Source: Prorocentrum cordatum
Lineage: Eukaryota
Direction: 5' to 3'
DNA length: 64,000 nt
Assembly: GCA_963575745.1 (NCBI GenBank)
Contig: CAUYUJ010000212.1
Location: 1-64,000 of the forward strand
Below the pieces are notes generated by a model that worked only from the letters and a program-made list of their open reading frames with translations, was not told the origin of the DNA and did no database searches. Numbering within the stretch: position 1 is the stretch's first letter; every line of letters starts with the position of its first letter. The position numbers and the translations under genes are program-made. Of this stretch, positions 21,901 through 41,149 are shown one piece after another.

Positions 21901-23020
21901 TCGCCTCTGGAGATGATGGCGTGGCTGGCCGCTTCGTCGCGGCGACCTGCTCCTCTGGCATGGCCACGCGCGTCGCCTCTTCGGGCGCGAGCGCATGCCC
22001 CGCGAAGGGCCGGCTGGCGCAGGCGAGCGCGCAGGCGCCCAGCGCCGCGCTCGCGGCCCGCGCGCAGGGCCGCTGGCGCAGGCCAGCGCGCAGGCAACCG
22101 ACGCCGCGCGCGGCTCGCACATTGAAAATGCAAACGGACGCGGATGTTGTGCACGTATGCGCACGTGCAAGTTCACACATCGCATCGCGCACTGCTGCGC
22201 ATGCCCTTCCACTTGCAACTGCCATACTACCAGTTCCATACAGTGCCTGCCGCGCCACCTGTCCCAGCCAAGGCAACGCGATACATCTACTGGGAGCGTG
22301 TGGATCCTGGCAATCATGAAATAAGACATGGGACCTCCACACGAGAGATGAGAAGGAGTAGATAGGTTTTGGCAAGGCCCGACTGGAGCACGATCACACT
22401 GGACACTGCTGGTTGTCTCCCTCGGCGGGCTTGCGCCCATGACCAGATGGCACGGTGAGCTTGGTCGCAGCGTTGAGGATGACGGCATATGGAATGTGGT
22501 CTCTGCCGGAGTGGAGTGCTGCGCGGTCGATGCAACCCTTCGTGAGTCCGCAATCATGTTGCGGATATCCTCCCAGCTCAGGGCCGATAGCTGGCCTGAA
22601 CACAGGAGGTCTCGGAGCCACAGGAAATGCGGCAAGAGTGAGTGATCTGCTCGAGGCTCGGGCCTAATGACCACCACGGCGGCGACGACGCCCGTAGAGT
22701 CAAGGCAAAGCTCGAGCTGCACAGCCGAAGCCTGCTGCCCATCTTGCTGGCACCGCTCGGCGCATGGACCGCGAGGCCCGAACGTAGTACTGAGCGCCAG
22801 GCCATGATCCATGGATGAGTTCGCGGCCGTCCATTCACTGGTGAAGGTGTTTCTTGTCACCGTGTTGGTAGATCAAGACTTCCAATCCAAAAAATGGCAG
22901 AGGATAGTGCCAGTAAAAGAAGCCGGCGCTGATGTTGAGAATGTGGTGCCCATGCACAGAATACTGCACCGCGTAGGACACGACCTGCCAAGTACCCCTT
23001 CCGTGTGTTGGGGTCTCGAC

Positions 23021-23218
23021 TGGGTCCCCGTGGCCCCCGACTCCCCTGGACCTCCAAGGAGCCCACGAAACTGGCGACAGTTGCGCAGTTCGCAGCCACC
23101 CAGGGAGCAGCCAGCTCTCGTCTGGGTCCGCGTGGCCCCCGACTCCACTGGACCTCCAAGGAGCCCACGAAACTGGCGACAATTGCGCAGTTCGCAGCCA
23201 CCCAAGGAGCAGCCAGCT
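23021..23218. repeat. 102-bp tandem repeat, target of the copia insertion; it resumes at 39102-39160
   Basis: Units start at 23021 and 23123. The second unit is cut at ...GCCAGCT and continues as CAGCTCTCGTCTGGGTCCG after the element. Confidence 0.9.
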
Positions 23219-23470
23219 AGTCGAAAGTGAGCCTGGTAGCTCAAATATGGCATATAGCCTGGCAAATTGCATCCATCGCTCTGCTGTGAAGGTACAGTAT
23301 GAGGGGTGGATGAGTAAGATCGGATAAGATCGATGTAATGATCTTTCCAGCACATAGCGAACACTCGCGGTGTCCGGGCAAATAGGGCGCGCGTGCCTTG
23401 GGCCAATGGCAACGGCGCGCGAGCTATGCTCCCGATACTGTAACATCTCCCAAAGAGCTACCCTTAAAGT
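23219..23470 (-). repeat. 3' LTR (252 bp)
   Basis: Matches 38850-39101 at 248/252 positions by manual comparison. Confidence 0.95.
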
Positions 23471-23840
23471 CGGGAGGGGAGGAGACGGAGAGCATAGTCG
23501 CACGCAAAGATCGCGCGCACGACTGTTTGCAAAGAAAAGAAAACAGTGCGTACAGTCTGGTCAAACACCAGACTGTAAGGCGAGTTTCCTCGCAAAGTAT
23601 TTCACGCAAATACAGGACAGCCCCTTCAAACAATGAAGGGCTATCGGCTCAGTTAGAGGTAAGCCAAAATTAGGCCATACCTCACCAAGCAAATGTGCAT
23701 TAAGGCAAAGAGCCTGAGTTGTAAGAAGCCGGCTCGTTGCCAGGCGTGAAATATAAGGCTCGTTTCCGAGCAGCTAAAGGGGCGCCTTTATAGTAGGCGC
23801 CCGTGCTGGCAAACTGGACCGCGAGGGCAACAAGGACAGA

Positions 23841-26800
23841 CTAAAATTGATTAGACTTAGGTTTGTCTCTGTCCTCGGGACCCCGAAAGGGAACAAATTG
23901 TTTCACGTCATACTTAAATGACTGAGTGCCTGACATCACTTCCAGAAGCAGCTCCCGATCGATGCTTCCCTTGTATGCCCATCTGCGGTCATATCCCTAG
24001 TATCACACCATTGCACGTTATGTACTATACCTATATCCATGAGCTCACGTATCCAGCTGATATGTCCAAGCAGAGTCCGTTCTGTAGGTATTTTGAGATC
24101 CCTGCTTGATAAAGATTTGCAGACGGACTCGGCGTCTATGGTAAGAGAGACTTTAATAGCAGGGCCTCCAACTTCACGCATGTCTCGTAGTTGTCGTGGA
24201 GTCAAAGCCCCTGCCTTAAGCTCGTGGAGAGTAATGAGCGTAGGGTAACACTCATCAAGGTTATGTGCGGCTGCAAGTGCCTCTGCAGCATAACTGGACC
24301 TCACCTGTAATCGGTGTGATTTGCATAGTCCGTCACAGAGGTGAACGACGGACTTGCCTTGGGGCGAGTTTCCTCGCCGTAGTACGTTGGCCCCGCGCAT
24401 GCCGTAGCCCTTGGTCTCGTCATCCTCCTCCCCGGTAAGCTTCCGATACCCCGAATCGCTATGGATGTCAACTTCATTCGTCGGCTTCATCCGAGGGAAG
24501 GTGATACGTTTCGGACTGCTGATCAGCTTTCGCGCCACAGCATTCAAACGTCTGACTTGCAGATTGGTGGGCTCTTGAACTTTCTGAAGAGAGACCACAT
24601 ATGCCATAAGCCAGATTTGGGTAAGAAGGGCATAGGCGAGGGCTCCTCGCAGGCTGACGAACATGTCGGTAATGAGTTTCGTGGCTTTGGCGTCGGCCGC
24701 CGCTCCTGTCAGTTCTAGGTGTGTGATAGGTCGTAGTTGTTTAATACACTCGTCCTGGTCCATGATCACATCTCCCTGATCATTCTTAGTGTAGCGAACG
24801 GCGCAGTTCGTATATGTGTGCTTGTTGAGCTTGCATTTGCCAAATACCTTTTCGACACGTTGTACATAGTCGTCTATATTTTTCTCTAGACCTGTCATGT
24901 TAATATCATCGACATGTTTTGCCGTCAGAAGGTCTTGGCTGAATTCAAATTCAGGATCGTAGCTGGTCGGTGTAAGTCCTATAGCTCGTGTGGTCGTACG
25001 AAGTTTGAGAGAGAACGCTCTTGGAGCGTCCTTAGTACCCGTTCCTGGTTTGAGGCATCTAAGACAGTGTCGACTTTCGTCGTAGGATGAGAAGCCGGGT
25101 AAGGTACGAAGTACCTGAGCGCTTCCTGGTGGAAGAGTAAAGCAAACCATGCGAGTTTCCTCGCCGGTGGCATGGGCAAGTTCCTCATAGGTCAAACCTT
25201 TTAGGAACGCCTTATCGATATCCATGGATGCTAAGATCCACTCTGGATGACATGCCGCTTCACTTGCCAGGAGTCGTTGGGACTGCCTTCGGGCGGTTCC
25301 CGAGAATGTTTCCACATCAAAAGCCTCAGTATCCATAAATCCACGAAGGACCAGTCTGAGACGAATGGTTTTGACGCTCTCGGTACCCATCTTTACGAAC
25401 TTCCACTTGTATACGTATCTGGAAGTCATGATGTTGGAAGCTTTGGATAAATCGTACATCTCAAAGCATCGGTTATCAATCCAGATTTTGAGCTCAGTAT
25501 ATAAGGCTTCACTAACCTCCTTTGGATGTGCTGCTATGTCGGCTTTGGTCAGTAGATCATCTTCTTTGACAACCACAGCACGTTTAGCAGCAAAGGATAC
25601 ATATACTCTCATCGTTGCGACCATATCGGTATCGAGCTGTGCAAGTTGAGTCTGATCCAGCACTATGTTTGACATTTCTGATGTAAAGCATAGTTCAACG
25701 TAAGGACCGTATTCATCACTGTCTAGAAAGTAGCTCTCGTCAGTTGTGTTTGAACAAAGCGATACTAGACAGGACTCACATGATTTCGGCTCGTCTCCGA
25801 GCATATCTGATGATGTAATATCATCTTCGTCCACAAATGCTGAAACCAAAACACATTGGTCGGGCAGCATAGTTGTTGGGACGCAATAAAGATAATCATC
25901 GGTAATCGTCGTAGGATGAAGGTCCATACGTAGCTCGTCGTACCACTCTTCCAGCATCATAGCTTCAATATTGTGTTCCTCATTTTCCTCATAGATTGTC
26001 GACAGACGGCCTTCGCTCGGCGATGAAGCATCTGGTGTGTCTGGAGAAGGCCTGTTTCCAGGCGACTCGTGTTCTCCAGACGTGTTGCTTGGATGCTGAT
26101 ATTTAGCCAAATCGTCGTGAAATCCTAAGGAAGGGACACGTGAAGTCAAGCATTGAATAAGTCTGGAGTGAGTGCTACCAGTGATCTGAGAAATGTGTAA
26201 GCCAGTGCCCACACATTCGTAATAGTGGAACGCCGGGCTGATGTCGTTGTCATAGTGGATCAGCGTAGACCCGGTGGCGTACTTTACTGCAGGTAGGCTT
26301 GACACACTCTTAGCCAATCGAACTGCTACTACATGTTCTACTCGGAAGTAATTTCGTACGAGATACTGTAGTGCTAAGTGTACGCGCGGGTGAAACTTGC
26401 TGTCGTCTGACAGATTAAGGTTTCCCTTGTAATCGGGGATATACCCGAAAACTTTGGCAGGTTTCCCTGCGCTGAGGTGTGCCACATAAGCAAGGACGGT
26501 TTGCATGGCCATATTATCCATGCCAAGTTCCCGTGTGAGGAGACATTCGATGTATAGTGTGTGACGAGCATCAGGATACATCACAATTACCTCACGAGAT
26601 CCTGCCTTGACAACAATATGTCCTCTTTCAGGCACATTTCGGATCACCGGGAATGGGCCATTCCAGCCTCCATGGTCGTCCTTGGTGGCAGTAGGTCGGT
26701 GGTAGTCGACCAAATCCCCTGATGAGTAGAGGCGAGCACCATCAGGAGTCGTCTTAGCCCTAAGAGCCCGATTTGTCTTGGCCACAGCAGTAGCCTGAGT

Positions 26801-28834
26801 TATAGCTTCTAGGCTGACTTCCCTTACACGACGTTCTCGTTCGTGTCCTGAAGTCTCGGGTCCCTTGGGAAAGTCAAGGGTATCGAGATCAGGAAGGAAG
26901 GAGGGCTGACGTCCTGTGTGTGCCTGATATGGCGATACTCCGTTATAAAACGTAAACGCATTAGTAACGAAGATGCCTTCCGCCAATACTCTAGTGAATA
27001 CAACAGGGATGTTGTGTCTATTCAATTCTTCCTCAATCATGTGGAGGACGCCTCTGAGAATGCCGTTTCGTGACTCAATTGAAGTCGCGTGTTGGCCAGG
27101 TGCTCGGATACGAAGTTCCGTGCCCTTATTGGCCATCATGGTTTTAGCGGCATCGTTATTCAGGGCGCCTTCTCCGTCTGAGTATAAAACTTTGAAGGGT
27201 CCGTGATAGGCAATCCAGCAATAGTGGTAGGCGTCGATGATAGCGCCACGTTCTCTGTCGGAAATTTCTAGGCCTGCTGCCAGGCGAATACAACGATCCA
27301 TAATATGAAATATGGTCCGTTTCTTGTAAAACATGAGGTCCATTTCCCCTTCATCGAGCCAGTTACCAGGAAGGCTCACCGATGGTAGCGTTGAGTTTCC
27401 TGGACGTTCCCATGCTCTACATCCCCGACAGGCATCACAGACTTCCTTGATCATGTTCAGTCGAACGTTATCAAGCCCCACCTTTTCGAGGATTAGCCTC
27501 ATCTTTGGATACTTCGCATGATACCATCGCAGATGCAGTTTTCGGAGTTCCTTTTTCACGACATGAGGTTCGTGACTACGGAGACTCTGTAGACTGTGTT
27601 GGATGTCGAATCTCGTCCAGTCGGGTAGTCGTGGAGCCCCAGAGCCGGTGGAGGCAAGAGGGTTCCTTGTAGCTCTCCGTAGTTGGTCCCCTGTGTTAAC
27701 TGCGTCTGGAGGTGGTGGTACGCCTTGTAGACGGCCGCGGCGGGCCGCTACCTGTGGCACTTCGCTAGAAGACGCAGAAGGCGTGTTTCCACGCTCGGGG
27801 GCGTCTCGTAGCATGTCGTAGCTGCTGGCACCGGATGTCGGATCGACGTTGCCGAAGGATCGTGGTCGCGGTGGCCTGGCATGTGCGCCTTGACGGCCAC
27901 CTGAAGCTGAAGCTTGGCCCTCACCAGGTTTAGGTAAGGGTTTCCACCAAGCTGGCACAGTTTTGCCTTCGGGGTCGTGGTCGTCTGGTAGTTTAAATGG
28001 TTCAGCAAAACGACATTTACCAGGTTCGGTATCGAGGTGGTTCTTAACACCCTTGCTTCTCGTAAGATCCCTCTGACATGCTGGACATGGCCAATATACA
28101 GAGATGGAATCATGATATTTACACTGCGTAGGGTCTCTGTTATGGCTCGGACTGTCCTTTCGGACATTGTCGATGCATGCCGGGCAAGTAGCCACCTTTG
28201 GGATGATACGATCACCGATGCGTCTCATACCTTCGCCTGGTTCAGCTTGATCGGGAAGGTCTGTAGGATAAGCATGTGCGGTACTTATAGGCGCGTTTCC
28301 GCGCGTGGTGTCAATGGCTTTCGCCAGATATACAGCTTCCACGAAGGCAGACTGCAGTCGTCGGGTGTATTTTTGTGCCAGTGAAAGCTCGGTATTGCAC
28401 GGTTGTGCGTGCACATGCTGACCGTTACACTTGAGTCGCTCAAAGGGTTTAAGAATTGTCTCGTCGTTGCTGGTGATATTTGTCGGCTTCTTAATATAGT
28501 CACCAGTCGTGTCTTTAAGTCCCGTAGCGCATTGGTCAATGCGTACGGTTGTAATGTGTGGTCGGTTGGCAAGCTTCTTCCATGGAGAAATATCATCTAC
28601 CCATGTTCCTGTAGGTTGTTCGCGTATAAACCACCTCTGAGAGTCATCTTGGGTTACAGCAATTTTACCACAATAAGTTATGTGCGGTAAGTCTTCTTTA
28701 TGGTGCTGTTCCCAAGTGTTGTAGTTGACTTTGTAGTTGTAGTAGGATGGTGGTCCTGTGGTGCGACAGCTGGGTTGCAGTATGGCAACTCGTACGTAGC
28801 ATATAGCAAAGTAATGGTCTATAACCTGCTGCAC
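23841..28834 (-). CDS. pol: Pol: zinc fingers, integrase (HHCC plus DDE), copia-type reverse transcriptase and RNase H; 1-bp deletion near 23971
   Basis: Integrase: LHLRWYH..CDACRGC, MDL, SDGEG, IESRN. RT: SRYVYKWK, RLRLVLRGF, DIDKAFL, KDAPRA, HVDD. RNase H: SDSG, SSYAAE, IDAES, MTADGHT. A frame change restores KGSIDRELLL, ending at TAG 23841. Confidence 0.95.
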
Positions 28835-28955
28835 CGAGGGGTCTCCCAGGTCGACATATGTAGTCTTGCCAAGTTGCCGCCTGAGGAAAGTCCCCTTGAG
28901 AAGGCAAGCTCTGAGATGCCACCCTCACCGCCACAAAGCTCCAACATATCCACGC
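28360..28955 (-). other. C5-cytosine methyltransferase-like domain, split by a 1-bp deletion near 28869
   Basis: ELCGGEGG (motif I-like), QPSC (PC motif IV), REQP (ENV-like) and DQC..G...KKPT. Adding one A restores GGNLDKTTYVDLGDPSVQQ. Confidence 0.7.
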
Positions 28956-30270
28956 AGTTGTTATGGCCATAGCATAGTGTAGCAACTATGCTGTATATGT
29001 TAGCGTGTGTGTCGGGCATAGATGTGGGGAGGGTAAGGAACAGGTCACCGTCCTCGTCGGAGCTTACCAGCTCAACAGGGACGTCAGTACTCCAGGTTGC
29101 CATAAGATCCTGTCCGAGTCCTGACAAGTCGTCGCCGCAATCGTCGCTTCCGTCTTCAACGTGCTTTTTAATGCGGCGAGGCTTGATGCCTGCTTCCTTT
29201 TCGGCTTTGAGCCTCTCCTTCTGTTTTATACGCGATTCAGTGGGTAAAGCTTGCTCGTCTTGTTCGTCGGTCTGTGTACTCATTGTCGTTGTTGAATGGG
29301 TACATGCGTCAATCGCCAGAGTCGGGGGGGGGAGAGAACAGTCATCTATGATGACGCGTCGATGTTTCTGTGGTGATTGAGTCGGCTCGTTTCCGAGCAA
29401 GACCGCTTCCTCGGGTTGCCAATACAACCAAGTACTGATGTTGGCAACCCCTGCAGGTGATGGTGCATGCCAATCATATCCTGTTGGTTGATCGGTAACT
29501 GAGATATCCTGAATAATCGCATTGGTATCCAGGTTGATTGTTACACGTCGGATGACTTCAGACCATTTTGGTCCTCCTTTATTAGTCGTCACGTAGTGAC
29601 GGATGTTATGGTCTGTACGTGTATACGTATTTAAGTATACGGGCACGTTTCCGTGCGTGGTGGTGCTCCCCAGGATGTTGTCGTTCAAGTGACGGATGAG
29701 TGTAGTACGTGTCTGAGCTCGCCATTCAGCATGCCGTACTGTATGGCTTGATGATGCTACCTGCATATAAGTACCGCTTGGTGTACTGTCTTGCATATTG
29801 AACGGAATACCGAAATGACGCAAACGCATCCGTATTACTGGCAACTTTAGATCTTCCAGAGTATCACGTACTGGAGATAACTTCCAAACATGTCCTGGGG
29901 GACCAAATATTATGATCTTCATGCGGAGTTTCTTGGCTTTTATCAATAGGTTCTGGATGCGTGACCAATGTGGGGCCACTCTCTTTCCTGGAGTTCTTAC
30001 GTACCAGTCACCCGGAGTACTGATCCATATGAGAGTGTAATCTCCACTGATCACCGCACCTAGGTAGTTTGTGCCCACGCTTGTCATAAGTTCGTTGTGG
30101 GAAATACGATCACAAATAGAACCTCGTGTGCGGAGGTCGGCACATGCCTCCCTCGTACCTTCAATGACAAAAGCCCTCTTACTAAGGCAGGTTACCCCGC
30201 TGTCCTTGTTACCCCCCGGCTTTTCAGCCAACAGGCAAGACGACGAGGGGGCGACGTCGCCCTGCCATCT
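28819..30270 (-). CDS. Polyprotein segment with a degenerate MTase-like domain, a GPKW..V.RRVT motif and the start of a DNMT-like domain
   Basis: Same frame as ORF 30271..35028, separated only by TGA at 30271-30273; it ends with MLELCGGEGG. Confidence 0.7.
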   Translation of the reverse strand, partial: RWQGDVAPSSSCLLAEKPGGNKDSGVTCLSKRAFVIEGTREACADLRTRGSICDRISHNELMTSVGTNYLGAVISGDYTLIWISTPGDWYVRTPGKRVAPHWSRIQNLLIKAKKLRMKIIIFGPPGHVWKLSPVRDTLEDLKLPVIRMRLRHFGIPFNMQDSTPSGTYMQVASSSHTVRHAEWRAQTRTTLIRHLNDNILGSTTTHGNVPVYLNTYTRTDHNIRHYVTTNKGGPKWSEVIRRVTINLDTNAIIQDISVTDQPTGYDWHAPSPAGVANISTWLYWQPEEAVLLGNEPTQSPQKHRRVIIDDCSLPPPTLAIDACTHSTTTMSTQTDEQDEQALPTESRIKQKERLKAEKEAGIKPRRIKKHVEDGSDDCGDDLSGLGQDLMATWSTDVPVELVSSDEDGDLFLTLPTSMPDTHANIYSIVATLCYGHNNCVDMLELCGGEGGISELAFSRGLSSGGNLARLHMSTWETPRCSRL

Positions 30271-33200
30271 TCAAGATGAAGAAGATGTGCCTACAATATC
30301 TGCCAGCATCTGGGCTTCCCTCAGATGCTGGAGCTCAGCACTGCAGCGCGCCGTGGCCTCAGAGGCGGATTGCTCCGCAAATGCTGTCAGCATCGATGGA
30401 TTATCAATCAGCTGTTTCAGCACGCCTTTGGACCTAGCGTCGCTGACCGTATGCAATTCACGATTAGTGTATCCCATCACTATTTTACGGCGGGACTGTA
30501 CTGCGTCCATGGGTACACTACCACCATGCAGGGCCAGTGTCCTGGCAACAAAACAATCGAACGTCTCGAGATCGTCGATGTTGTCGCCTCGCATGGTGGC
30601 CTTGGCGAGCGTCTCCATCAACCCCTGGGGCAGGTTTCCCTGCAATTGGTTGCGCTCCTGCGCTGGGGTCGGCTCGCCTGTCAGCACTGTCTGGAAGGAT
30701 GTGCTGCTTGAGCTCGAAGCGGGTTGCCCCGCAGCTCCAAAACAATCACACCTGATCGACAGATGCCCTGACGGCAACTTTGTCGTCGGCATGATTTTGG
30801 AGCCTTCTGGGAGCTCCATTTTGACCTGCCCCTTACCAGGGAATATCAGCTTTTCCTGGCCTCGTTCAAGCACGATGATCGTGCGTTTGTCCTGCATACT
30901 ATCGAGACCTAGGATGGCTGGCAGGTCCTTGCCACAGCCTGACACAATGTTCGTCTTGTATGAATCGAGTTGGGCCGACCCCTGGTACTCGCAGGCAATA
31001 CTGAATGTGCCTACGGTATCCGCTGGGGCCGACCCTTCTCCCACTCCGTTGATATTCAAACGAGAGCGGGGCTCGAACGTACAAGTACGGCCATGTGCCT
31101 CGGCAGCCTGGACGAACTTACGGCTCGTGTTCTCGCCCATGATGTTGATCTTCGAACCGACGTCGATGAGTATGGAATTTCCACCATCATCCAAGAACGT
31201 CTTACTCGGCTGCTTGATGTGCACAGTTTCTGAAGTGTCGGCTGTGTCGGTAGGCGGGTTTCCCCGCGGCACAGTCGTACTCCCTGGCGGGTTACCCCGC
31301 ATGACACTGGCATGCGACTCGCTCTCGGCCATGCGTGCCAGGTCAATGTACTGGAAGCACGACACGTGCTGGGCGTGATCGCCACGCTCCTCCCGCCAGT
31401 TGGCATACTCATCACGTATGCTCATATACTGCTCGCGGGTCGTGCGCCTCATCAACGTTAGGTACGAGTGAAGGGCGATGTCTTGCAGCCCCTCGTTCGT
31501 GATGTGATCCCGGTACCGCAGCCACTCCTCGAACTCCTCATTCGTCGCTGAGATATTGACGGCCCTGGCTGCTGTTGCTGCTGACGCCACTGAGGATTCT
31601 GATAAGTCTAGCGACGGACTATCAGTTTCAGGATTGTTGGCATCCAGCATAAATGTTGTGCGCGTATTATCCATCTGATTCTGGAAATGTCGTACACGCA
31701 ATTCACGCAGCTGGTCAGGGCCCAGTGACATCTCAGCCTCACCTCCACTCTGGGGAGACATCTGAGGAGTATCATGCAGGTTTCCCTGCTGAGGCGCCGT
31801 CATCGGGATAAGCTGATCAAAATATCCCGTTTCCATAGGCGGCCTTACCTCTTCAGGCAGGTGTCCCTGCTGTTGTGACGGAACTGTCTGCATAGCTAGC
31901 ATCCTGGACGTCATCTCCTCCACCATGCTCCTGAGCTCCCGCAGCTCTCTCGCTGACTGCTCAGGAGTCTGACTAAAGGAGCCGGTCCATGGGAAGGATG
32001 ATGCTATAATGCCAGGTGCTCGACAGATAGCACATGATGGCTGCTGGGGATCTCCCTCACGCTGATTTGTAACGTGGCCCACCACATTAGAATTCCAGCA
32101 TCCCTCGTGGAATAGGCGATTGCACCTCAGGCGGTAAACGCTATCCCTGGGCTGAAATTCTTCGAGGCATACCGCACAGGTATCTTCCATCCCAGTAAAG
32201 ACTTCTACGTCTGCTGCCCTGGGATATACCCGCCGCTGCCTCTCCAGTACCGTCTCGGAGGGCATGAAGGCTGATGGGGGTGTCCCCGTTGGATTCAGCA
32301 CTTCCTGCACTTCGACATTTGGCATGGAAGTGGTAGGAGTCACGGCGGGCGAGTTTCCTCGCAAAGGTGAGCCCCTGTTCCTCACCACATCAAGTGCAGC
32401 TGCACGTGACTGATCCCGTACGCTTTGCACCGCCTGCCTTCTCCTGAAGCATGCCTGCTGAGTGTGGTGCGTCTGCCTGATGTAGTCAGGCACGCCCCTA
32501 CTGCCAGACGATATTGAATGGGCAGTGGGCTGGACAACCACCTCTGTTGATGTTGGTGAAGGCGTGAAGGCCATGTGCGGGCACATGGAATGGTCACTGC
32601 AGCGCACATTAGTGAGGTTATGCATCTGATCCGCCAATTCACGAACAAATTTGTTCGGAACCCTTGACCCATCAGGGTATAATGGCGGGTTCATCTGCGC
32701 TGGTGGTGGCCTCTGGCCCTGAGACATGCTCGGATGGGCATTGAACGCCGGGATAAAGGCTCGTTGCCGAGCAGGATCCCGTGGGTTGGGACCCTCAGGC
32801 TCCCAGGACCAGGCTGGCCTCCACCTCTGCCCACTTGGGTGAGGCAGATTATGGCTCTGCACCTGCTGCACCGCGGCCGCCACTCTTGAGCGATAGTCGT
32901 CAGGTACACCCGCCCTGTGGTGGCTTGGTGTGCCAGGCAGGTTTCCCTGCTGACTCGTTGGCGTGCCGGGCGGCATCATGTTGAGGAGGGCTGTGCTGTG
33001 TTCAGCCCTAGCAGCAGCTATCCTCTCCATGAGAGTGCCGTTTGTGGCAGGGCGGACAGGTGTCCCGAATGGGGATTGTGCCGGTGGTGTGCCCAATGGA
33101 GTCATGCCCCTTGGAGTGTGCATGCTCTGAGTAGGGCTTCCATGCATTGGTTCAAACCGAGCAGGTCCGCTTGTAGGCAGGTTTCCCTGCATGGCCTGAC

Positions 33201-35028
33201 GATTTCTCGTAGCCATAGCGGACATTGCTCCCTGGCCTGCGGCCCAGGGATCCTGCTGGTATAACCTGTCCGCCAGCTGTTCTACCTGGTCAGGGTTCAG
33301 CGCGGCTGCGATCTGATCCAGGTCCGAGGTACTGATGGCCTGCCAAGACACGGCACTAGGCCCTTGGCTTGGGGCACGGCTTGGAGCCGCGCTCCCGGCC
33401 TCACTCTCGGTAATCATGAAGATCCGATAGATCTCAGGCTGGTTTCCCAGCTGGGTAGGGCTGTAGTGGTCCCCAACTTCTCTGTGGAGGTAGCCCATAG
33501 GGGGGTCAACGCCCCCTTGGTCTCGGGACCACTGGTACTTAACGCTGGAAGTACCAACGTCAGCCCACCTGTCAGGAGCAGACATCGTTGCGACAGAGAC
33601 TCGCGCATGGCGGCTCCCCAGATACTCTGGATTACGCCATTGCCTTCCTGTGGTCAGGTCCTCTACATGAGAGATGCAATACGGTTCAATGATACCGTTA
33701 TCTCCCTCGGACAAGAGGACTCCGTTATCGGACCAACAGAACTTCATACCATCTTGTATGGCCTTACGCCAATCTACGAAGATGATGATGTCTGAGTCTG
33801 GGTCCCACCCACTGTTCACGGCACGGCGGCGAACTGTCGGCACGAAGTGAATGCGCGACCGGCCTGTCCCCTTTTTCTTCGTGTTATGCTCAGGTCTACA
33901 GGACAGGCCGTGCCACATAATCCCTTCGAAGGCGTGCCATCGAGTGCCATGCATAGCAACATCGGGGTATGGGGCCGGTCTCCCGGCAGGTTGGTCGCAC
34001 AGCACAATGTAGCTGTACAGCGACCACGGAGCTTTCAATTCCCATGAATGCCCCTGAGAGGCGCGGACGAAGATAGCGGGCTCTCCGGAGTCCCGCATCA
34101 ACACCTTGAACTGTAGGCGCTGTTTTTCTTCTCCGTCTGGTTCGCGGACATGAACAACTGCCATCATGATGGCTGCTAGTTGGTCAACCGAGCGCCTACA
34201 TAGATGCTCGTTGATGATCTTGGCCTCGTCATATATTGGATTATACCCAGCGTGTCTTGATTGACCTGTGTTCCACGGATAACGGTCCACGAGTTCCACT
34301 AGGTTAACCCAACCATCATGATCATCGAAAGATTCCAAGCGCCACACAGGATTGTGTTGCTTGTCTGGCGCATGTCTGCATATCCTGCTGAGAGCTTTGC
34401 TCAGCTGTTTGAGAATAGCATTGGATGTGGGAAGGATTCCAGCTTTCCTGCATTCCTTCATGAATGTCTCATCCACCGAGCGTATCGGTGGGAGCTTCCG
34501 AAGCGCAAGTCTATCCCTGATCACATTTGGAGTCCCACTAGTGAAGGACGTGTCACCTGGGTGGTGCAGCTGAACCACTGGCGGGTTTCCCCGCATCGGA
34601 ACCTCTGTTGCTGAAGAGGCTGCGGCTCCAGAAGAGGAGGAAGCTGCGGCGGCAGCGCCTGGCGGGTTTCCCCGCGGAGATGCGCGACTGGCGCTGCCCC
34701 TGATCTTCGGCACCCAGGTACCCCTCGACATAGCACCTTCATCGGACCTCCTGGAACGAGCCGCCACAGGCGAAGCTGGCGCAGGTGCATACCCACTGCG
34801 CTCGAAAGCTGCCGCCTTTTTCGCAATGGAGCTGCTGCGACTAGGCGGGCGTCTTCGTTCCTCCATAGGGTCCTGAGGTTGCTGCTTGGGCACAGACGCT
34901 TGTGTAGGAGTTGTGCCAATCGGCGGCCTCGGAGTTTCAGTTCGAGGCACCTCCATCTGCACGTCTGGCCCAGGGTCCTGAGGGCTCGTCTCGGTTTCGG
35001 CACCGAGGACGAGGTGTCGGGGGTTCAC
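30271..35028 (-). CDS. Polyprotein segment with Tpt1/KptA-like 2'-phosphotransferase, RING-like finger and aspartic protease
   Basis: 1585-aa ORF. Tpt1 motifs at about 33665-34410, RING at about 32021-32178, protease LIDVGS...ILGLD at about 30900-31175. Confidence 0.85.
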   Translation of the reverse strand: MNPRHLVLGAETETSPQDPGPDVQMEVPRTETPRPPIGTTPTQASVPKQQPQDPMEERRRPPSRSSSIAKKAAAFERSGYAPAPASPVAARSRRSDEGAMSRGTWVPKIRGSASRASPRGNPPGAAAAASSSSGAAASSATEVPMRGNPPVVQLHHPGDTSFTSGTPNVIRDRLALRKLPPIRSVDETFMKECRKAGILPTSNAILKQLSKALSRICRHAPDKQHNPVWRLESFDDHDGWVNLVELVDRYPWNTGQSRHAGYNPIYDEAKIINEHLCRRSVDQLAAIMMAVVHVREPDGEEKQRLQFKVLMRDSGEPAIFVRASQGHSWELKAPWSLYSYIVLCDQPAGRPAPYPDVAMHGTRWHAFEGIMWHGLSCRPEHNTKKKGTGRSRIHFVPTVRRRAVNSGWDPDSDIIIFVDWRKAIQDGMKFCWSDNGVLLSEGDNGIIEPYCISHVEDLTTGRQWRNPEYLGSRHARVSVATMSAPDRWADVGTSSVKYQWSRDQGGVDPPMGYLHREVGDHYSPTQLGNQPEIYRIFMITESEAGSAAPSRAPSQGPSAVSWQAISTSDLDQIAAALNPDQVEQLADRLYQQDPWAAGQGAMSAMATRNRQAMQGNLPTSGPARFEPMHGSPTQSMHTPRGMTPLGTPPAQSPFGTPVRPATNGTLMERIAAARAEHSTALLNMMPPGTPTSQQGNLPGTPSHHRAGVPDDYRSRVAAAVQQVQSHNLPHPSGQRWRPAWSWEPEGPNPRDPARQRAFIPAFNAHPSMSQGQRPPPAQMNPPLYPDGSRVPNKFVRELADQMHNLTNVRCSDHSMCPHMAFTPSPTSTEVVVQPTAHSISSGSRGVPDYIRQTHHTQQACFRRRQAVQSVRDQSRAAALDVVRNRGSPLRGNSPAVTPTTSMPNVEVQEVLNPTGTPPSAFMPSETVLERQRRVYPRAADVEVFTGMEDTCAVCLEEFQPRDSVYRLRCNRLFHEGCWNSNVVGHVTNQREGDPQQPSCAICRAPGIIASSFPWTGSFSQTPEQSARELRELRSMVEEMTSRMLAMQTVPSQQQGHLPEEVRPPMETGYFDQLIPMTAPQQGNLHDTPQMSPQSGGEAEMSLGPDQLRELRVRHFQNQMDNTRTTFMLDANNPETDSPSLDLSESSVASAATAARAVNISATNEEFEEWLRYRDHITNEGLQDIALHSYLTLMRRTTREQYMSIRDEYANWREERGDHAQHVSCFQYIDLARMAESESHASVMRGNPPGSTTVPRGNPPTDTADTSETVHIKQPSKTFLDDGGNSILIDVGSKINIMGENTSRKFVQAAEAHGRTCTFEPRSRLNINGVGEGSAPADTVGTFSIACEYQGSAQLDSYKTNIVSGCGKDLPAILGLDSMQDKRTIIVLERGQEKLIFPGKGQVKMELPEGSKIMPTTKLPSGHLSIRCDCFGAAGQPASSSSSTSFQTVLTGEPTPAQERNQLQGNLPQGLMETLAKATMRGDNIDDLETFDCFVARTLALHGGSVPMDAVQSRRKIVMGYTNRELHTVSDARSKGVLKQLIDNPSMLTAFAEQSASEATARCSAELQHLREAQMLADIVGTSSSS
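33665..34410 (-). other. Tpt1/KptA-family RNA 2'-phosphotransferase domain
   Basis: Ordered motifs LSKALSRICRH, DGWV, KQR, VRASQGHS, HGT, GLS, RIHF and DGMKF..SDNGVLL.EG..G.I.P. The Arg-His-Arg-Arg catalytic set appears present. Confidence 0.9.
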
Positions 35029-38000
35029 TTTTGGCCTTCGAAGTTAGTGGGAGTGGGGGCCTCGTAGCCCTCTTCATGTAGATCTTACTAGAATCCTCCA
35101 ACATCTTGCGAGTTGCCTCGCGAGTGCGGTCTTCTGCTGTCCGCATACGCTCCTCATCCTCCGCCACACGTTGAGCCTTTATATCATCCTTGATTGTCGG
35201 TTCTGGTTGTTGGGACTGGCTAGAGACGCCAGGCGAGTTTCCTCGCATACTAGGAAGACTGAAGAGCGCGTCTTTCTCTTCCTGGGTCATGGCTACCAGT
35301 CCCCTTGGAACCGGGGTAGGCTTTTCTTCTTCGTTCGGATCCAAGTGGCTCAAGATCCCGAGACGACGATTCACTTCTGCAATTTCTTCCTGTGCCATCG
35401 GGATAAGTTGCGGATGGCCCTCTTTATGAGGGGTTTTGCCCCTGTTGGGGCTCAGGCCTTCGTTGTTGCCAACGGGGCATCCTGGCCTGTGGTTCTGGAA
35501 CGGCCGGGAACAAGGTCCGCATGCTGCGTGAGGCCTATACTGCTTGCGCGCCGCGATAATATCTCGCAACTGAGTCCGCGCTTCTTGAATTTCAGGGCGG
35601 CGGATATTTGTTGCAAGCTGATAGCCTCCGCGGATGGCCTTGCCATCACTGTCCCTATAGGCAGGGTTGCCCTTGCCGAAGGCCGAGTGTTCCCCTTTTC
35701 GGCGTCTTGGGTCGTTGTACGGAAGTAGCTGGCCACCTCTCCTGAGAGCGTGTTCTTTTGGGCCAGCCTGCCTCCACTCACGAGGAAGTCGAGCCTGTGG
35801 ATGTGGCTCTTCTCTGACGCGCGTATGGGAGCGAGATCTTCTGGTGTTCTCATCAGAGGAAGCTGCCGAAGCAGCAGGAGCGGCACCCGGTGGAGGTGCC
35901 TGAGGAGGCTCCTGTGCGATCCCAGATGGATCGTCCGATGGAGGCAGGTCTCCCTGCTGGGTGGAGCTCGGCGCAAATGGCGCTTGTGCCGATGGTGATG
36001 ATGATTCAGACTCATCAGGATCGAAGTCAACCTCTTCCTCACCATTCACGTCCATCATGAGGATGGTGACGTCATCCTCATCTAACCCGCAACCATCGCC
36101 TTCTACTTCTTCTGATGTCGAACTACCGATGATGATGGCCATTGGCGTATCTGGTACAGGCAGGTTTCCCTGCATAGCCGGCGTCTGTGCGTCGCTCGGC
36201 TGTCCCGGAGTAGGAGGCACTGTTGTCGGCTCAGGCTCGTTGCCGAGCACAGGCTGCCCAGCAATGTTACGCATGGCCGTATGGTTTGGCCTCATTCCCA
36301 CCGCCTGGAGACCCCATCCTGGCGGAGGAAGATCATGACCGCGCATAGCAATAGCCATTTCTAGAGCATTACGCCATCTACCACGGGAGTATATCAAGTG
36401 TCTCTGCACGTCCTGAGGATGCACGCTGTCAATGAGAGTCAGAGCTGCCAACAACAGCTCTGAGCTACCGCAAGCATCAGTATCCTGTTCTGTCATAATG
36501 TCAGCTTCGATATGTTCTTGACTCTCAGGATAACCAGTTATAAGTATCTCATGCATCCTCATGAGGGTCTGCAAAAGGGTGCGTGGTCCATATTCGCCTG
36601 GAGCAAGCGAACCAGGAGGTATGAACGGAGTATCTGGTTCGCCTGCAATGAAGGCCTGAACAAATGCCTGAGACTCCATTTCAATTAAGTCTTCAGTGGT
36701 CTGGGGATATTCTCCCATCAGAGACGGCCTGTTTCCAGGCGGGATTTCGGGCGGAGGTTCGAGGTTCCGTTGAACCTCGGAAGGCGAAGCCTCTATAGTG
36801 GTGTCCTCGTCGTCGCTCTCGTAGGCCATGATGTTGCCTGGGTTCCCGAACATCCAGTCGTAGAAAGAAAGAGGCTGGTTTCCCAGCGTACCGTGTTCCA
36901 CGGGAGTAAGCTCGTTACTGCCCATAACGAACCGGCGGACGTACTCGAGGTAGTACGCGTACAATCCATGACCATACGCTTCGAGCTCGTCGACGTTGTC
37001 CATGCCAACAACCCAAGTGAAAAATATCTGCTCCATAGCCTCAAAGTCCTGGAGGCTCAGATATTCAATGGATGGTTCACTTGAGCCAAAATGGACTTCG
37101 GTCGACCTGCCCTTTCCATTTCCCTTCACTGGACAATCTCGCACAAGATGATCGGAACTACCACATTCATGGCATTTGAGAACCTGGCCGTCTCTACCTC
37201 GCGGGTTTCCCCGCCTACCTTTGCCTTTTCCTGAGGTCTCTCTACGGCCTTTACCACGGCCTTTTCCCCCAAAGAATATCTCATCATGTTGTTCATCTGA
37301 GAGCCTCTGGAGAAATGCCGCGATACCTCGTCCGTTCAACCTCCGACGACCTCGCTTGCCTTTACCCTTTCCTTTAAAACTTCTACGTATCCTCCTTCTA
37401 ACACGACGCACTGGTTTTCGTGTGAACCTCCTCCACCTTCGTTTAGCCTGTTGTAATAACCAGAACAAATGCTCAGCACGCTGATTGTCGTTATCCATAT
37501 TCATAATATCTGACCAATCTAAAGCTTCAACACCATCTGATGATATAGTGTCTGTATGGGTGCCGGAGTCGAAATCCTCGTCTCCCAAGTAGGTGGATAC
37601 ACCGTCGGTTAGGGGGTTTGATTCCCCCCACAAAGAACGGTGTGGTTGTGGTTATCTAGAAGGAGGGCTGGTTGCCCAGCTTGGTTGTGATCGATCCCCT
37701 GCTAATAAAGCAGTGGATTCTCCTGGGTCATCGGCCCATACGCTTGAGGGCCCGTTTCCAGGCTGGGCTTCAGTGGTCAAGGTAGTGTAGAAATTTCCAC
37801 TACCAGATCCCCTTCCCCTTCCAAACACAGATCCTATGTTACCAGGAGCCCGTTCGGATAGGTGGCCTATCGAACGCATCCTCTCCAGCAACTCATCATA
37901 TTGTTGTTGTGTTCGGGGCATTTGGTGATTGAGTGGCTGTAAGAGTTGCATGGCTCGCTGGTTGCCGACGCCTAAGGCGCGGAATAGGATAGTGGTTAGC

Positions 38001-38884
38001 AGTTGGAAGTTGGGAAGGTCGAATCCCACCGATTGTGCCTCCAGTCGGGCCATTTCGAATCGGGTAAGGGTGACATCGATTCGTTCCCCGTGAGGCACGT
38101 GGAAGTCGATGAGTTGTGTGCCGGAAGTGAGCTGTCGCTCTTCCAGGCGTTCGAACTTCATGCTTAGGAGGAACATGATGTAGGTCACTGGGTCTGTGTG
38201 GACCCCATCGATGTCAGCACCATAGTTGATAATGTCAGGCGGTACCCTCATGGCGAGTGTCCTCGCTAGGCCACCTAGGCCGCGTTGTATTGCGGCCGCT
38301 TGGGCCTGTGGCGTCATACGTCCGCTTGTAACGTTGAGCCATGCGTTGACCTCGTAGATGTACTCACGAAAAGGTACATTACCTTGAGGGTCCCAATATG
38401 GGCCATGTGTTTGCCCATCGGTGCTGTTTTCTCCACGACGCATGTGTCCGATTGCTGCCCCCAGCGCGAACCATATAATAGCGAAAACGACTAGCCCGAG
38501 AATGTGTAACGAAGGACGGTTATGATGCGCGTTGTCGCGCTGGGGTAGCGCCTTGTCGAGTCTTCGAGGCGCTCTGTCTGGCGGGTCTCCCCGCCCCTGC
38601 TTCAAGTATTGCGCTGTTGGCTCGTTGCCGAGCGGTTGGTGGTAACGCACTGATGAAGCGTATACGGTACCAGTCTGGTCGTCTAGACGTCGTACCTCTC
38701 GTGTTGCTTCTTGCTCTTGGATAGATCCTCGTAAACGTACTGGGAGTGGTGGCGCAGAGTGGTAGGTAGTCACGAAGATCGTGCCGAAGAATATGAGGCT
38801 AAGAAAAGCAAGAGCTGACCACACGAGAGTGCGGCCAGCTCCGCTACCAAGTCGACAGTGAGCCTGGTAGCTCAAATATGGCAT
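34937..38884 (-). CDS. gag: Gag-like polyprotein region: two hydrophobic segments, capsid-like domain, Arg-rich tract and CCHC zinc knuckle; one in-frame TAA at 37652-37654
   Basis: ORFs 37652..39043 and 34937..37633 are in the same frame. There is an in-frame ATG at 38884 inside the LTR and CHECGSSDHLVRDC at about 37131-37175. Confidence 0.8.
38838..38849 (-). promoter_or_regulatory. Primer-binding site, tRNA-iMet type (TGGTAGCGGAGC)
   Basis: Abuts the 5' LTR. TGGTAGC is complementary to the ...GCUACCA 3' end of eukaryotic initiator tRNA, as in the Ty1 PBS. Confidence 0.85.
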
Positions 38885-39101
38885 ATAGCCTGGCAAATTG
38901 CATCCATCGCTCTGCTGTGAAGGTACAGTATGAGGGGTGGATGAGTAAGATAGGATAAGATCGATGTAATGATCTTTCCAGCACATAGCGAACACTCGCA
39001 GTGTCCGGGCAAATAGGGCGCGCGTGCCTTGGGCCAAAGGCAACGGCGCGCGAGCTATGCTCCCGATACTGTAACATCTCCCAAAGAGCTACCCTTAAAG
39101 T
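38850..39101 (-). repeat. 5' LTR (252 bp)
   Basis: Matches 23219-23470 and is followed immediately by the PBS on the minus strand. Confidence 0.95.
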
Positions 39102-40459
39102 CAGCTCTCGTCTGGGTCCGCGTGGCCCCCGACTCCCCTGGACCTCCCAGGAGCCCGCGACAAGAGCAAGCGTTGTGCAGCTCACTGCCGCACAGGGGGC
39201 GGCGCAGAAGCAGGCAGAGAGGGAGAGGGAGGCGGGAGACGTGGAGACCACAGCGCTCTACTCAAGACGAGCACCCAACAACTGGAGGGTTGGGAAACAT
39301 CTCTGGCCCAGACCTTCTCAGGTCAGGGATTTGTTCGTCCTAGACCCCCAAGGGGCCGCCCCGCGCGCGCGCGAAACAAAAAATACCCTGGAGTTTTTTC
39401 CCGAAAGTTTAGCACGCGTCTGGCCCGTTGGGCCAGCGAATTGTCCTAGGTTTCGGATGTCGAAACCCTCCCCATCCCTCCCTCACTGCGGCAAGGAAGC
39501 GAAGCAAGCAAGCAAGCAAGCTGGCCGAGCGCAGGAGGCGGACGGCAAACACCATCCCCCCTTTTCCGCTCCTCCTCGTCGAGGACCCCAAGAGGCAACT
39601 CCAGGGAGGTCTTCGTGGGAATGACTGAGAACGAATGAGCCCACTGAAGGGGCGACCTGTGCTGGAGTGGAATATAATAACGAACCATGCCGAATCAAAC
39701 CAAATTGGGCGGCATCATGCCGCAGCCAGGCCAATTCAATCGGATCAGACTGTAGGAAATGCAGCACCGATACTGAATCTAACCTCCCAGGAACCGCAAA
39801 CTTAAGCCCCACCCCCTCCCCACCCTCCCCCCAGACCCCCGACGTCGCAATCTGCGTCGCAGAATCGACTCGACGTCCCGGCCCCTCCCCCGGGAGCGGC
39901 TCCGCATCCTGAATATTTGTTCGATGGTCCCCGGGCCCAGCGAGGGCACTGTGAGGCCGGAAACGGCCAAAAATCGTACGTCGTGCTGATGTTCACGACG
40001 CGAGGGTCTGGCCCCCTCCCCCCCCCCGCTGCGGAACAAGCAGCCAATGCGCCCTTCCCCTCCTCCGGCTCTCCCCCTCTCTGCTCCCCCGCCGCTCGCC
40101 CCCTCACATCGTCTCTTCTCTTCTCTTCGCTCCTCTTCCCTTCTCTTCTCTTCTCTTCAGAAGTGGAGCCAGTGCCCTGGCACGTGCCCTGTCCATGCGG
40201 GGCCCCCCGCGCAGGTGGAACCCGTGCCTGCCGCGTCGCCGACCCCAACCCTCCCCCGCTCACCCCTGCGCTCCCCCCCTCGGGCCCTCCCCTGCCACTC
40301 CCCCCCTCCCCTCCCGGGCACGCGGCGCGCGCTCGGCGCTCCCCGCGCCTTTGGCCCTGGAGCCCAGGCGGAGCCCCGTGTCGGGCGGCGGCCCCGGAGC
40401 CGGCTGCTGCAGCTGCGGCGGCTGCTGCGGCGGGGGGGCTCCGTTTTTTCATCGCCAGA

Positions 40460-40880
40460 TGAGGAGGAGAACGAGGAGGAGGAGGAGGAGGAGGAGGAGG
40501 AGGAGGAGGAGGAGGAGGAGGAGGAGGAGGAGGAGGAGGAGGAGCAGAAGGGAAGTGAGGAGAAATGGAGGAAGGAGGAGGAGGGAGGAGGAGGAGAGGG
40601 AGGCCGAGCAGAAAGACGACGACGAAGACGACGACGAGGAGCAGGACGAGCAGGAGGAGGAATAGCAGGACGAGGAGGAGCAGGAGGAGGAAGACGAGGG
40701 AGAGGGGGAGAGGGAGACGAAGAGGAGGAGGAGGAGGAGGAGGAGGAGGAGGAGGACGAAGAGCAGGAGGAGAAGGAGGAGGAGGAGGAGGAGTGGGGGG
40801 AGGAGGAGGGAAGGGCCAAGGAAGAGGAGGAGGAGGAGGAGGAGGAGGACAGGAAGGAGGAGGACGAGGAGGAGGACCAG
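40460..40880. repeat. (GAG)n microsatellite, degenerate
   Basis: Direct reading. Confidence 0.95.
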
Positions 40881-41149
40881 AGTAAACCCAAGGTGCATCA
40901 AAGATGCTGCACTATACCCTTCCGTCCCAAGCCTCCTCCGCGTAAGTCCCTGTAAGCCTTCCCTCCCACTTCAAGAGGCGCCCCTTTCGAAGACCAGCAC
41001 CCTATGGGCCTGCCACTCAGGCGAGAGCCCCGCTTCAAAAAAGGAACGAGCTGACTTGTTGCCTCCTGCGAATGACAATAAACACGCAGAGAAAGGTATT
41101 ATCATACAGCTCAGTGAGGTGTCCAGCGCGACCCCCGCTTTAAAAAGGA

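Follow-up and report, generated by a model that had tools for sequence, protein, structure and literature searches.

A predicted Tpt1/KptA RNA 2'-phosphotransferase domain in the Gag-protease polyprotein of a large Ty1/copia-like retrotransposon from Prorocentrum cordatum

Tpt1 is the last enzyme of fungal and plant-type tRNA splicing, and its role in the many organisms that lack this kind of tRNA splicing is an open question in the field. The enzyme moves an internal RNA 2'-phosphate onto NAD+ (PMC6097658). KptA/Tpt1 domains have been described in the polyproteins of positive-strand RNA viruses, among them Beihai picorna-like virus as well as Botrylloides leachii nidovirus (PMC9503650), and the so-called PTP1 of invertebrate nidoviruses is a domain of the KptA/Tpt1 type (PMC11848433). 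Retrotransposons of Symbiodinium and Klebsormidium have captured cytosine methyltransferases, and the Copia elements of Symbiodinium were reported without such a DNA methyltransferase (DNMT) domain (PMC5890265). Here we describe a Tpt1/KptA domain in the polyprotein of a long terminal repeat (LTR) retrotransposon, found in a stretch of 64,000 nucleotides from Prorocentrum cordatum (assembly GCA_963575745.1, contig CAUYUJ010000212.1, positions 1 to 64,000 of the forward strand), which we call the window. An initial annotation made from the letters of the window had proposed a Tpt1 domain at 33665–34410 inside a copia-type polyprotein.

The domain is encoded at 33703–34407 on the minus strand, as are all other parts of the element given below, and corresponds to residues 213–447 of a frame at 30271–35043 that runs for 1590 codons without a stop. 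The Pfam profile PF01885 (PTS_2-RNA) matches this frame with an E-value of 1.7e-22 and 80.7 bits at a gathering cut-off of 26, covering profile positions 5–177 of 177, and chance is excluded as the source of this match between sequences. The envelope agrees with the range proposed in the initial annotation, and every Tpt1 motif listed there is present in the right order and in a single frame. When the domain was compared with the sequences of the Protein Data Bank (PDB), only human and mouse TRPT1 were returned (7yw3, E 6e-10; 7yw2, E 3.7e-8). An AlphaFold2 model computed from an alignment of 74 rows reached a mean predicted local distance difference test score (pLDDT) of 88.6 and a predicted template-modelling score (pTM) of 0.82. 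Every one of the 22 Foldseek matches of this model in the PDB at E <= 1e-3 is a Tpt1/KptA structure, led by mouse TRPT1 (7yw2, E 2.7e-13, TM score 0.79 normalised by target); PARP catalytic domains follow only at E > 0.02. The profile search and the structure prediction, both named in the initial annotation as checks, returned a full-profile match and the Tpt1 fold.

Residues known to be essential in yeast Tpt1 are Arg23, His24, Arg71 and Arg138 (PMC6097658). Their equivalents in the window, assigned by spacing and motif context, are Arg223-His224 in a CRH motif (34372–34377), Arg309 in KQRLQ (34117–34119) and Arg395 in GRSRIH (33859–33861). In the alignment all four are kept in each of three element domains, namely that of the window and those of two metagenomic relatives introduced below, P0152 and L041. 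We also asked how far the element domains follow the 38 columns that are at least 80% conserved among 56 rows of cellular-type Tpt1. The window domain agrees at 31 of the 38 near-invariant columns versus 19 of 121 variable ones (Fisher p 1.4e-13), and the near-invariant residues are similarly kept in P0152 (32/38), L041 (28/38) and the partial P0010 (22/32), which speaks for constraint on the domain. Alignment and fold model together establish a complete Tpt1/KptA domain with intact active-site residues, for which activity is predicted.

The surrounding element is a whole LTR retrotransposon of the Ty1/copia-like type, 15.9 kb in length (23219–39101), as judged from its LTR pair, target duplication, open reading frames (ORFs) and Pfam matches. 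The 5' LTR (38850–39101) and the 3' LTR (23219–23470) each measure 252 bp, differ at 4 of 252 positions (98.4% identity in BLAST), and are bordered by a 5-bp target-site duplication, AGCTG, at 39102–39106 and 23214–23218. The Tpt1 domain is enclosed by this pair, in line with its earlier placement inside the LTRs. In the direction of transcription the order is Gag, Tpt1, RING finger, protease, a stop codon, about 900 residues without a family, an integrase-like part, the reverse transcriptase (RVT_2) and the RNase H region. Gag is marked by a CCHC zinc knuckle, KCHECGSSDHLVRDCP, at 37130–37177, whose match to zf-CCHC is weak (E 9.4e-4, 19.6 bits, below the cut-off of 20.8). A RING-H2 finger (32020–32184) follows between Tpt1 and the protease, with matches to zf-RING_2 and zf-RING_11 at E about 5e-5, slightly under the cut-offs in the window and above them in relatives.

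The protease (30751–31176) was assigned by alignment and fold as a retropepsin-type enzyme with the motifs DVGS and ILGLD; the region was not detected by Pfam. D-x-G-S and L-G-x-x-S are invariant in an alignment of 12 rows, and an AlphaFold2 model (pLDDT 82.9) matches the FIV, XMRV, EIAV and HIV proteases as well as Ddi1 in Foldseek, with a best E of 4.7e-4 and a TM score of 0.55. Further downstream the reverse transcriptase at 24842–25471 matches RVT_2 (PF07727), the Ty1/copia type, with E 2.5e-8 and 34.3 bits at a cut-off of 31.6. The integrase-like part, in the frame 23936–28924, was recognised by eye from an H-H-C-C and D-D-E-like motif pattern and gave no match to an integrase profile at E <= 0.01. 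With a knuckle upstream, a retropepsin fold downstream and RVT_2 beyond it, the position between Gag and protease, the assignment to copia and the embedding of Tpt1 in a copia-type polyprotein, all three proposed initially, are borne out.

The domain is not confined to the window. When 1.84 billion representatives were searched exhaustively with a profile, 626 matches at E <= 1e-3 were obtained, the best of which, P0002, is 46% identical. To the same cluster belongs P0152, a metagenomic ORF of 1379 residues, which carries PF01885 (E 1.7e-13, 51.4 bits), a RING finger and the start of a protease in the same order. Seven short fragments labelled Pyramimonas sp. CCMP1952 are 54–81% identical to the window domain, and in one so labelled, P0006, a Pol-like piece is joined to a Tpt1 piece. 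We also collected 61 metagenomic loci by alignment to Pol; a tblastn comparison of these with the Tpt1 domain gave a single match, L041. This locus has an uninterrupted ORF of 2653 codons with a RING finger and a full-profile match to PF01885 (E 1.1e-16, 61.8 bits). It is colinear with the window, with identities of 41% in Gag, 27% from Tpt1 to RING, 31% in the protease and 73% at the Pol C-terminus. Within the Tpt1 domain the three lineages, represented by the window, P0152 and L041, share about 30–46% identity. The possibility left by the initial annotation that the domain is present in this copy alone and evolves neutrally is contradicted by its presence in three divergent lineages.

Within the family of the window, copies were compared by means of Logan contigs from four sequencing runs (X1, X2, X4 and X9) over the region 28700–37800. 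The contigs fill 30 of 30 bins, including the three that hold Tpt1. The placed contig pieces number 13,990 in X1, at 85–100% identity, and 4,746, 333 and 1,581 in the other runs; since they spread over identity classes from below 90% to above 99%, there are many diverged copies of the element. Part of the sequence words of the domain was present in 20 runs from 14 studies; no RNA run was listed among 24 runs, a result that is neutral on expression. Searches by words and patterns gave little more. The RING-protease part found one match only, P0189, a Prorocentrum cordatum gene model of 1207 residues whose C-terminal 200 consist of pieces of the element's protease region at 82–97% identity; this C-terminus is probably a mis-annotated transposon fragment. 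A search for long proteins with the element Tpt1 yielded none among 488 candidates and missed P0152, which has a short cluster representative. Scans with Tpt1 peptide patterns gave 595 matches in metagenomes and 58 in viral contigs, none of which was confirmed, and no match in phage records.

The element domains share features that set them apart from cellular Tpt1. Two insertions, SFD[DE][HY]D[GA]W behind the RH motif and SC[RL]xE[HD]NxK ahead of the last Arg, are common to the window, P0152 and L041 and absent from cellular Tpt1. In a quick maximum-likelihood tree of the domain (65 rows; fragments shorter than 150 residues and P0002 left out) the four element rows fall inside a clade of nine rows with a Shimodaira-Hasegawa-like approximate likelihood ratio (SH-aLRT) support of 99. 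The other five rows of this clade (P0015, P0019, P0023, P0044 and P0056) are short metagenomic proteins with the same insertions, some of them visibly decayed. The element clade sits on a long branch among cellular-type sequences, and the tree picks out no donor.

Relatives with and without the domain could be compared for Pol as well. In a tree of the last 154 Pol residues, a short alignment of 38 rows analysed by quick search with matches under 140 residues omitted (among them L033 and L031), the window and L041 fall into a clade of five rows (SH-aLRT 99), whose sister is L002 (91), a locus without Tpt1. Relatives whose Pol is more distant are without the domain: PF01885 was found by Pfam scan in one of 16 ORFs from 11 related loci, and the complete upstream ORFs of L033, L025, L031, L040 and L029 (1294–1855 residues) have a RING finger but no PF01885. 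In L002, L029 and L033 the Gag knuckle region and the RING are both present, separated by a spacer of about 550, 480 and 370 residues, respectively, without Tpt1, compared with about 1400 in the window. The RING-H2 finger itself was seen between Gag and protease in all related upstream ORFs of sufficient reach, whether or not they carry Tpt1 (L002, L003, L008, L025, L029, L031, L033, L040, L041 and P0152).

Given the shared insertions, the clade in the domain tree and the Pol clade with a Tpt1-less sister, the simplest reading of these sequences is a single gain of Tpt1 in the spacer between Gag and RING, in the common ancestor of the window and L041 families and after the split from the L002 type. 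On the same simplest reading the domain would have been retained since then, even as identity in the surrounding sequence fell to about 30%. Comparison of the lineages establishes, at the level of sequence, that one lineage of very large Ty1/copia-like elements (about 16 kb) inherits Tpt1 as a module of its Gag-protease polyprotein. The hosts of this lineage are marine protists, and that of the window, going by P0189, is probably a Prorocentrum-like dinoflagellate.

Hairpins of the element bear on the age of the domain. The sense strand of the element (23593–38633) contains 38 perfect hairpins, each made of a stem of 5 bp and a GNRA loop, and 35 of these have the form GCNNG-GNRA-CNNGC with co-varying stems; on the antisense strand there is one GNRA-loop hairpin and none of the GCNNG form. 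Most share one reading frame and encode x-G-N-x-P. One of them, GCCGG-GAGA-CCGGC at 33974–33987, lies inside the Tpt1 domain, as the initial annotation had stated. It stands in a different frame from most others and is translated as AGRP, part of a loop at the protein surface that lies between QGHS and HGT (pLDDT 71 for the block 151–160). Of the eight such hairpins in L041, one falls within the Tpt1 domain, though not at the place seen in the window. In P0152 and P0154, judged from the protein sequence, 11 and seven x-G-[DN]-x-P motifs, respectively, are flanked by residue pairs that fit complementary codons. Since each lineage has its own hairpins at different places within the domain, the argument drawn earlier from the hairpin, long residence rather than recent capture, is sound; the three divergent lineages and the shared insertions point the same way.

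Related loci have hairpin sets of their own, as seen in L041, L014, L045 and the L025–L033 group. L014 contains ten hairpins of the form TCACG-GRAA-CGTGA, and contigs of the L025–L033 group, which lacks Tpt1, contain 16–27 each of the form NNNNA-ATCA-TNNNN. A simple dependence of the hairpins on Tpt1 was considered and rejected in view of these ATCA-loop hairpins. The hairpins look like dispersed RNA signals shared across the family, perhaps for packaging; Rfam gave no match at E <= 1 over 22000–40000.

The frame with Tpt1 ends at an in-frame TGA (30271–30273), which separates Gag, Tpt1, RING and protease from the Pol frame. Eight relatives (L033:5409, L030:1825, L031:11702, L008:2154, L003:1545, L040:6843, L029:9984 and L002:3590) likewise have one in-frame TGA or TAG at this boundary, which suggests programmed stop-codon read-through in this copia-like group. 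The TGA of the window is accordingly placed where a stop recurs, and is probably read through rather than a mark of damage. Lying upstream of the stop, Tpt1 would be made at the level of Gag, above that of Pol.

The copy in the window is itself damaged. The initial annotation had spoken of an uninterrupted ORF, which holds for the 1590-codon frame with Tpt1; the polyprotein as a whole is in five pieces, separated by an in-frame TAA at 37652, a frame change at 34937–35043, the TGA at 30271 and a second frame change at 28819–28924. At 34990–34991, where the Gag frame passes into the Tpt1 frame, one base is missing from the window copy. Other copies have an extra T behind 34990, at contig depths of 240/309 (X1), 248/248 (X4), 7.3/7.3 (X9) and 27.6/27.6 (X2), and the frameshift is private to the window copy. 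A programmed frame change before Tpt1 was rejected, as nearly all other copies have one more base there. The frame change at 28819–28924 is common to most of the contig depth in X1 and X4, with an extra base behind 28868 in a minority (136/699 and 770/3683), and in related elements the frame is continuous across this region.

Private differences were taken from the 40 best-supported of 863 variable places. At these 40 the window copy departs from nearly all others, with 17 synonymous and 23 non-synonymous changes. One of the window's differences, at 32117, turns a zinc-ligand His of the RING finger into Arg (codon 976); other copies have His. With its private frameshift, the lost RING ligand and the private non-synonymous changes, the window copy looks like a decaying, dead member of a family that is live or was so recently. 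One X4 contig joins 31244 to 34578 with 39 other letters between them and represents a form without Tpt1 and RING. Both junctions adjoin GCGGG-GAAA-CCCGC hairpins, which suggests a deletion between hairpins.

Trl1-type ligation is known to leave a 2'-phosphate. The explanation that we tentatively prefer, and to which we give somewhat less than an even chance, is that the inherited module with its intact active site removes 2'-phosphates from element RNA in an NAD+-dependent reaction. The domain, as part of the Gag-protease polyprotein or freed from it by the protease, would meet element RNA in or near the particle. Cutting of this RNA would produce 2',3'-cyclic phosphate and 5'-OH ends, and rejoining by a Trl1-type ligase, whose use by the host is assumed, would leave an internal 2'-phosphate scar. 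Such scars would block the reverse transcriptase on element RNA, and the Tpt1 domain together with NAD+ would strip them, so that the template could be copied again. Inhibition of reverse transcription by 2'-phosphates has been described (PMC5824351), and the KptA domains in RNA-virus polyproteins were interpreted as modules for the repair of RNA ends (PMC9503650, section 3.7.3).

Several observations weigh against this explanation. Pfam found no ligase, kinase, 2H/cyclic phosphodiesterase or Macro partner in the element, and there is no ribozyme or other Rfam family in 22000–40000, so that the element gives no sign of cutting and rejoining of its RNA. Since relatives within the superfamily lack Tpt1, an element of this kind can do without the step. 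The three best-supported private changes in Tpt1 (codons 209, 276 and 456) are all non-synonymous; none is catalytic. Two near-invariant positions are altered in the window, with Arg in place of His in R-x-H-x-H and Asp in place of Arg in SGxR. The bacterial KptA equivalog models of NCBIfam (NF002012–NF002015) reach at best 31.7 bits at a cut-off of 239, and by its sequence the domain belongs to the PF01885 family and not to these equivalogs. The catalytic residues, finally, are equally suited to ADP-ribosylation of 5'-phosphates and do not single out the 2'-phosphate reaction. A variant in which the domain repairs the tRNA primer, raised in the initial annotation, is the weakest of the functional ideas and unlikely, because tRNA splicing leaves its 2'-phosphate in the anticodon loop, well away from the 3' end, the part of the tRNA used for priming and for copying.

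The main rival to 2'-phosphate removal, unlikely in our estimate and still the foremost of the alternatives, is that the domain performs only the first step of Tpt1 chemistry and ADP-ribosylates 5'-phosphate ends of element cDNA or RNA, shielding them from exonucleases, dead-end circle ligation or host sensors. Munir et al. (2018, cited in PMC11848433) reportedly dealt with capping of nucleic-acid ends with 5'-phospho-ADP-ribose by Tpt1. All catalytic residues required for capping are present, production at the level of Gag fits a stoichiometric job on ends inside particles, and the same lack of an RNA-ligation partner or ribozyme that would create 2'-phosphates speaks for it. Capping was observed with the Tpt1 enzymes in the literature, in which 5'-phospho-ADP-ribose caps are placed on RNA and DNA, by human TRPT1 among others (PMC10415124). 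Sequence alone does not separate the two activities, however, and the element has no Macro or other ADP-ribose-removing domain in Pfam; in the enzymes studied, moreover, capping reportedly is an in vitro side activity. A retargeted enzyme is a more distant prospect, and we consider it improbable: an ADP-ribosyltransferase or NAD+ consumer turned from nucleic-acid phosphates to host factors as a counter-defence, perhaps in concert with the RING E3. It would account for the fast evolution from Gag to protease (27–41% identity between window and L041, compared with 73% at the Pol C-terminus), for lineage-specific insertions in both lobes and for a RING finger that is always nearby, and KptA belongs to the ADP-ribosyltransferase superfamily, of which many viral members are conflict proteins (PMC9503650). 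Yet the Tpt1-specific residues, including the RNA-binding motifs of the N-lobe, are kept at 28–32 of 38 positions, which argues for the ancestral chemistry. No match to the anti-phage defence models of PADLOC was obtained, and the RING is older than Tpt1 and occurs without it.

That the domain is an unused passenger, a captured host Tpt1, or an artefact of assembly or nested insertion is the least probable of the explanations and largely refuted. The decay of the window copy, with its frameshift at 34990, lost RING ligand and three private non-synonymous changes in Tpt1, would agree with a passenger, as would the fact that relatives manage without the domain. Against this stand an in-frame Tpt1 with intact active site in three lineages at about 30–46% identity, the strong enrichment of canonical residues at conserved positions and the ORF of L041, unbroken over 2653 codons; element-type hairpins lie within the domain at differing places in window and L041, and contigs of four runs cover it. 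Quite improbable to our mind, too, would be a retrotransposition cycle with an NAD+-dependent nucleic-acid step used by no known retroelement, in which Tpt1 acts together with the hairpins or the RING finger. The GNRA hairpins could be sites of cutting and rejoining whose scars are removed by Gag-linked Tpt1; GNRA-type hairpins occur in all three Tpt1-bearing lineages, and ATCA loops in the Tpt1-less L025–L033 group. Alternatively, Tpt1 could cap 5'-phosphate ends with ADP-ribose, a mark on which the RING E3 would act, much as DELTEX ligases attach ubiquitin to ADP-ribosylated nucleic acids. Removal of 2'-phosphates from element RNA remains the explanation that we tentatively prefer.

Other features of the element and its surroundings were mapped as well. 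The element is bordered on either side by one and the same tandem repeat, whose unit is 102 nt long (23014–23218 and 39102–39160; two units on one side and a partial unit on the other), and has therefore landed in a minisatellite. Just past its 5' flank, at 40415–40926, lies a long low-complexity array with periods of 9–15 nt that reads as poly-Glu on one strand and gives poly-Pro/Leu-rich frames on the other. Directly after the 5' LTR, at 38838–38849, a primer-binding-site-like sequence of the TGG type, TGGTAGCGGAGC, is found; a tRNA scan of the 64-kb window detected no genes. On the sense strand the 30 bases before the 3' LTR (23471–23500) are pyrimidine-rich, CGACTATGCTCTCCGTCTCCTCCCCTCCCG, and do not qualify as a polypurine tract. 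The LTRs end in ACT...ACT instead of TG...CA.

From the stop of the protease frame to the integrase-like part, about 900 residues (27635–30270) have no Pfam family and are conserved in relatives, whose Pol ORFs with this part measure about 2000–2160 residues. A Pfam search of the unassigned parts of the polyprotein at E <= 5 gave nothing credible. In the ESM Atlas the frame 28822–30270 led only to unnamed clusters and, weakly (0.82), to C5 DNA methylases; an ELCGGEGG motif contributes to this weak lead. Among the other proteins with Tpt1, P0009 and P0011 are tandem repeats of the domain, and P0062, a eukaryote-type protein of 1700 residues from a Joint Genome Institute (JGI) metagenome, combines SPRY, a ligase-like DUF7920, a kinase-like AAA_33, a tRNA-ligase CPD and a C-terminal Tpt1, which would amount to a whole Trl1-type ligase and Tpt1 in a single chain.

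A literature search that took in few subscription-journal papers, and in which an earlier mention could have been missed, found no report of a Tpt1 domain in a retroelement, in agreement with the view of the initial annotation that this is not a standard LTR-element domain. The element is an LTR retrotransposon with a captured host enzyme, and Tpt1 as that enzyme is new in the literature searched. Its retention in a structural polyprotein through deep divergence offers a natural setting for the question of the enzyme's substrate: a defined nucleic acid would be expected here, either RNA or cDNA of the element itself. It also points to a step that could limit reverse transcription in vivo, either removal of 2'-phosphates or capping of ends. 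An enzyme of RNA repair or ADP-ribosylation would join the short list of host enzymes recruited by LTR elements, in parallel to the KptA domains of a few RNA-virus polyproteins, and this in a high-copy element family of dinoflagellate-type genomes, the repeat biology of which is little known.

Compared with the cellular enzymes Tpt1, TRPT1 and KptA (mouse and human, 7yw2 and 7yw3), the element domain has the same two-lobe fold, the full-length profile match, the four essential residues and the motifs RAxQGHS, HGT and S-x-N-x-V-L-S-x-G. It differs in being a segment of a retrotransposon Gag-protease polyprotein, whereas cellular Tpt1 is free-standing, in an identity to cellular-type sequences of at best about 31–39%, and in three kinds of insertion: one after the RH motif, one of about 30 residues ahead of KxR, which forms two additional helices, and SC-R-x-E-H-N-x-K ahead of the last Arg. 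Like Ty1/copia elements, the window element has LTRs with a target duplication of 5 bp, a primer-binding site of the TGG type and a Gag knuckle, and its protease lies upstream of RVT_2. Unlike these, it is about three times the usual size, has Tpt1 and RING between Gag and protease, about 900 residues without known function preceding the integrase-like part, and a stop codon in frame at the passage from protease to Pol, and shows a pyrimidine-rich tract before the 3' LTR and about 35 sense-strand GNRA hairpins within coding sequence.

Retrotransposons with DNMT are similar in that a host enzyme domain was recruited, kept and multiplied with the retroelement, whereas the enzyme, its chemistry and its position all differ; the report on them contains no mention of Tpt1 or phosphotransferase (PMC5890265). 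With the KptA domains of RNA viruses, compared here by description only, the likeness is that a selfish replicator based on RNA has taken a cellular RNA 2'-phosphotransferase into its polyprotein. Those domains belong to replicase polyproteins of animal viruses, whereas the domain of the window belongs to the Gag-protease part of a protist LTR retrotransposon.

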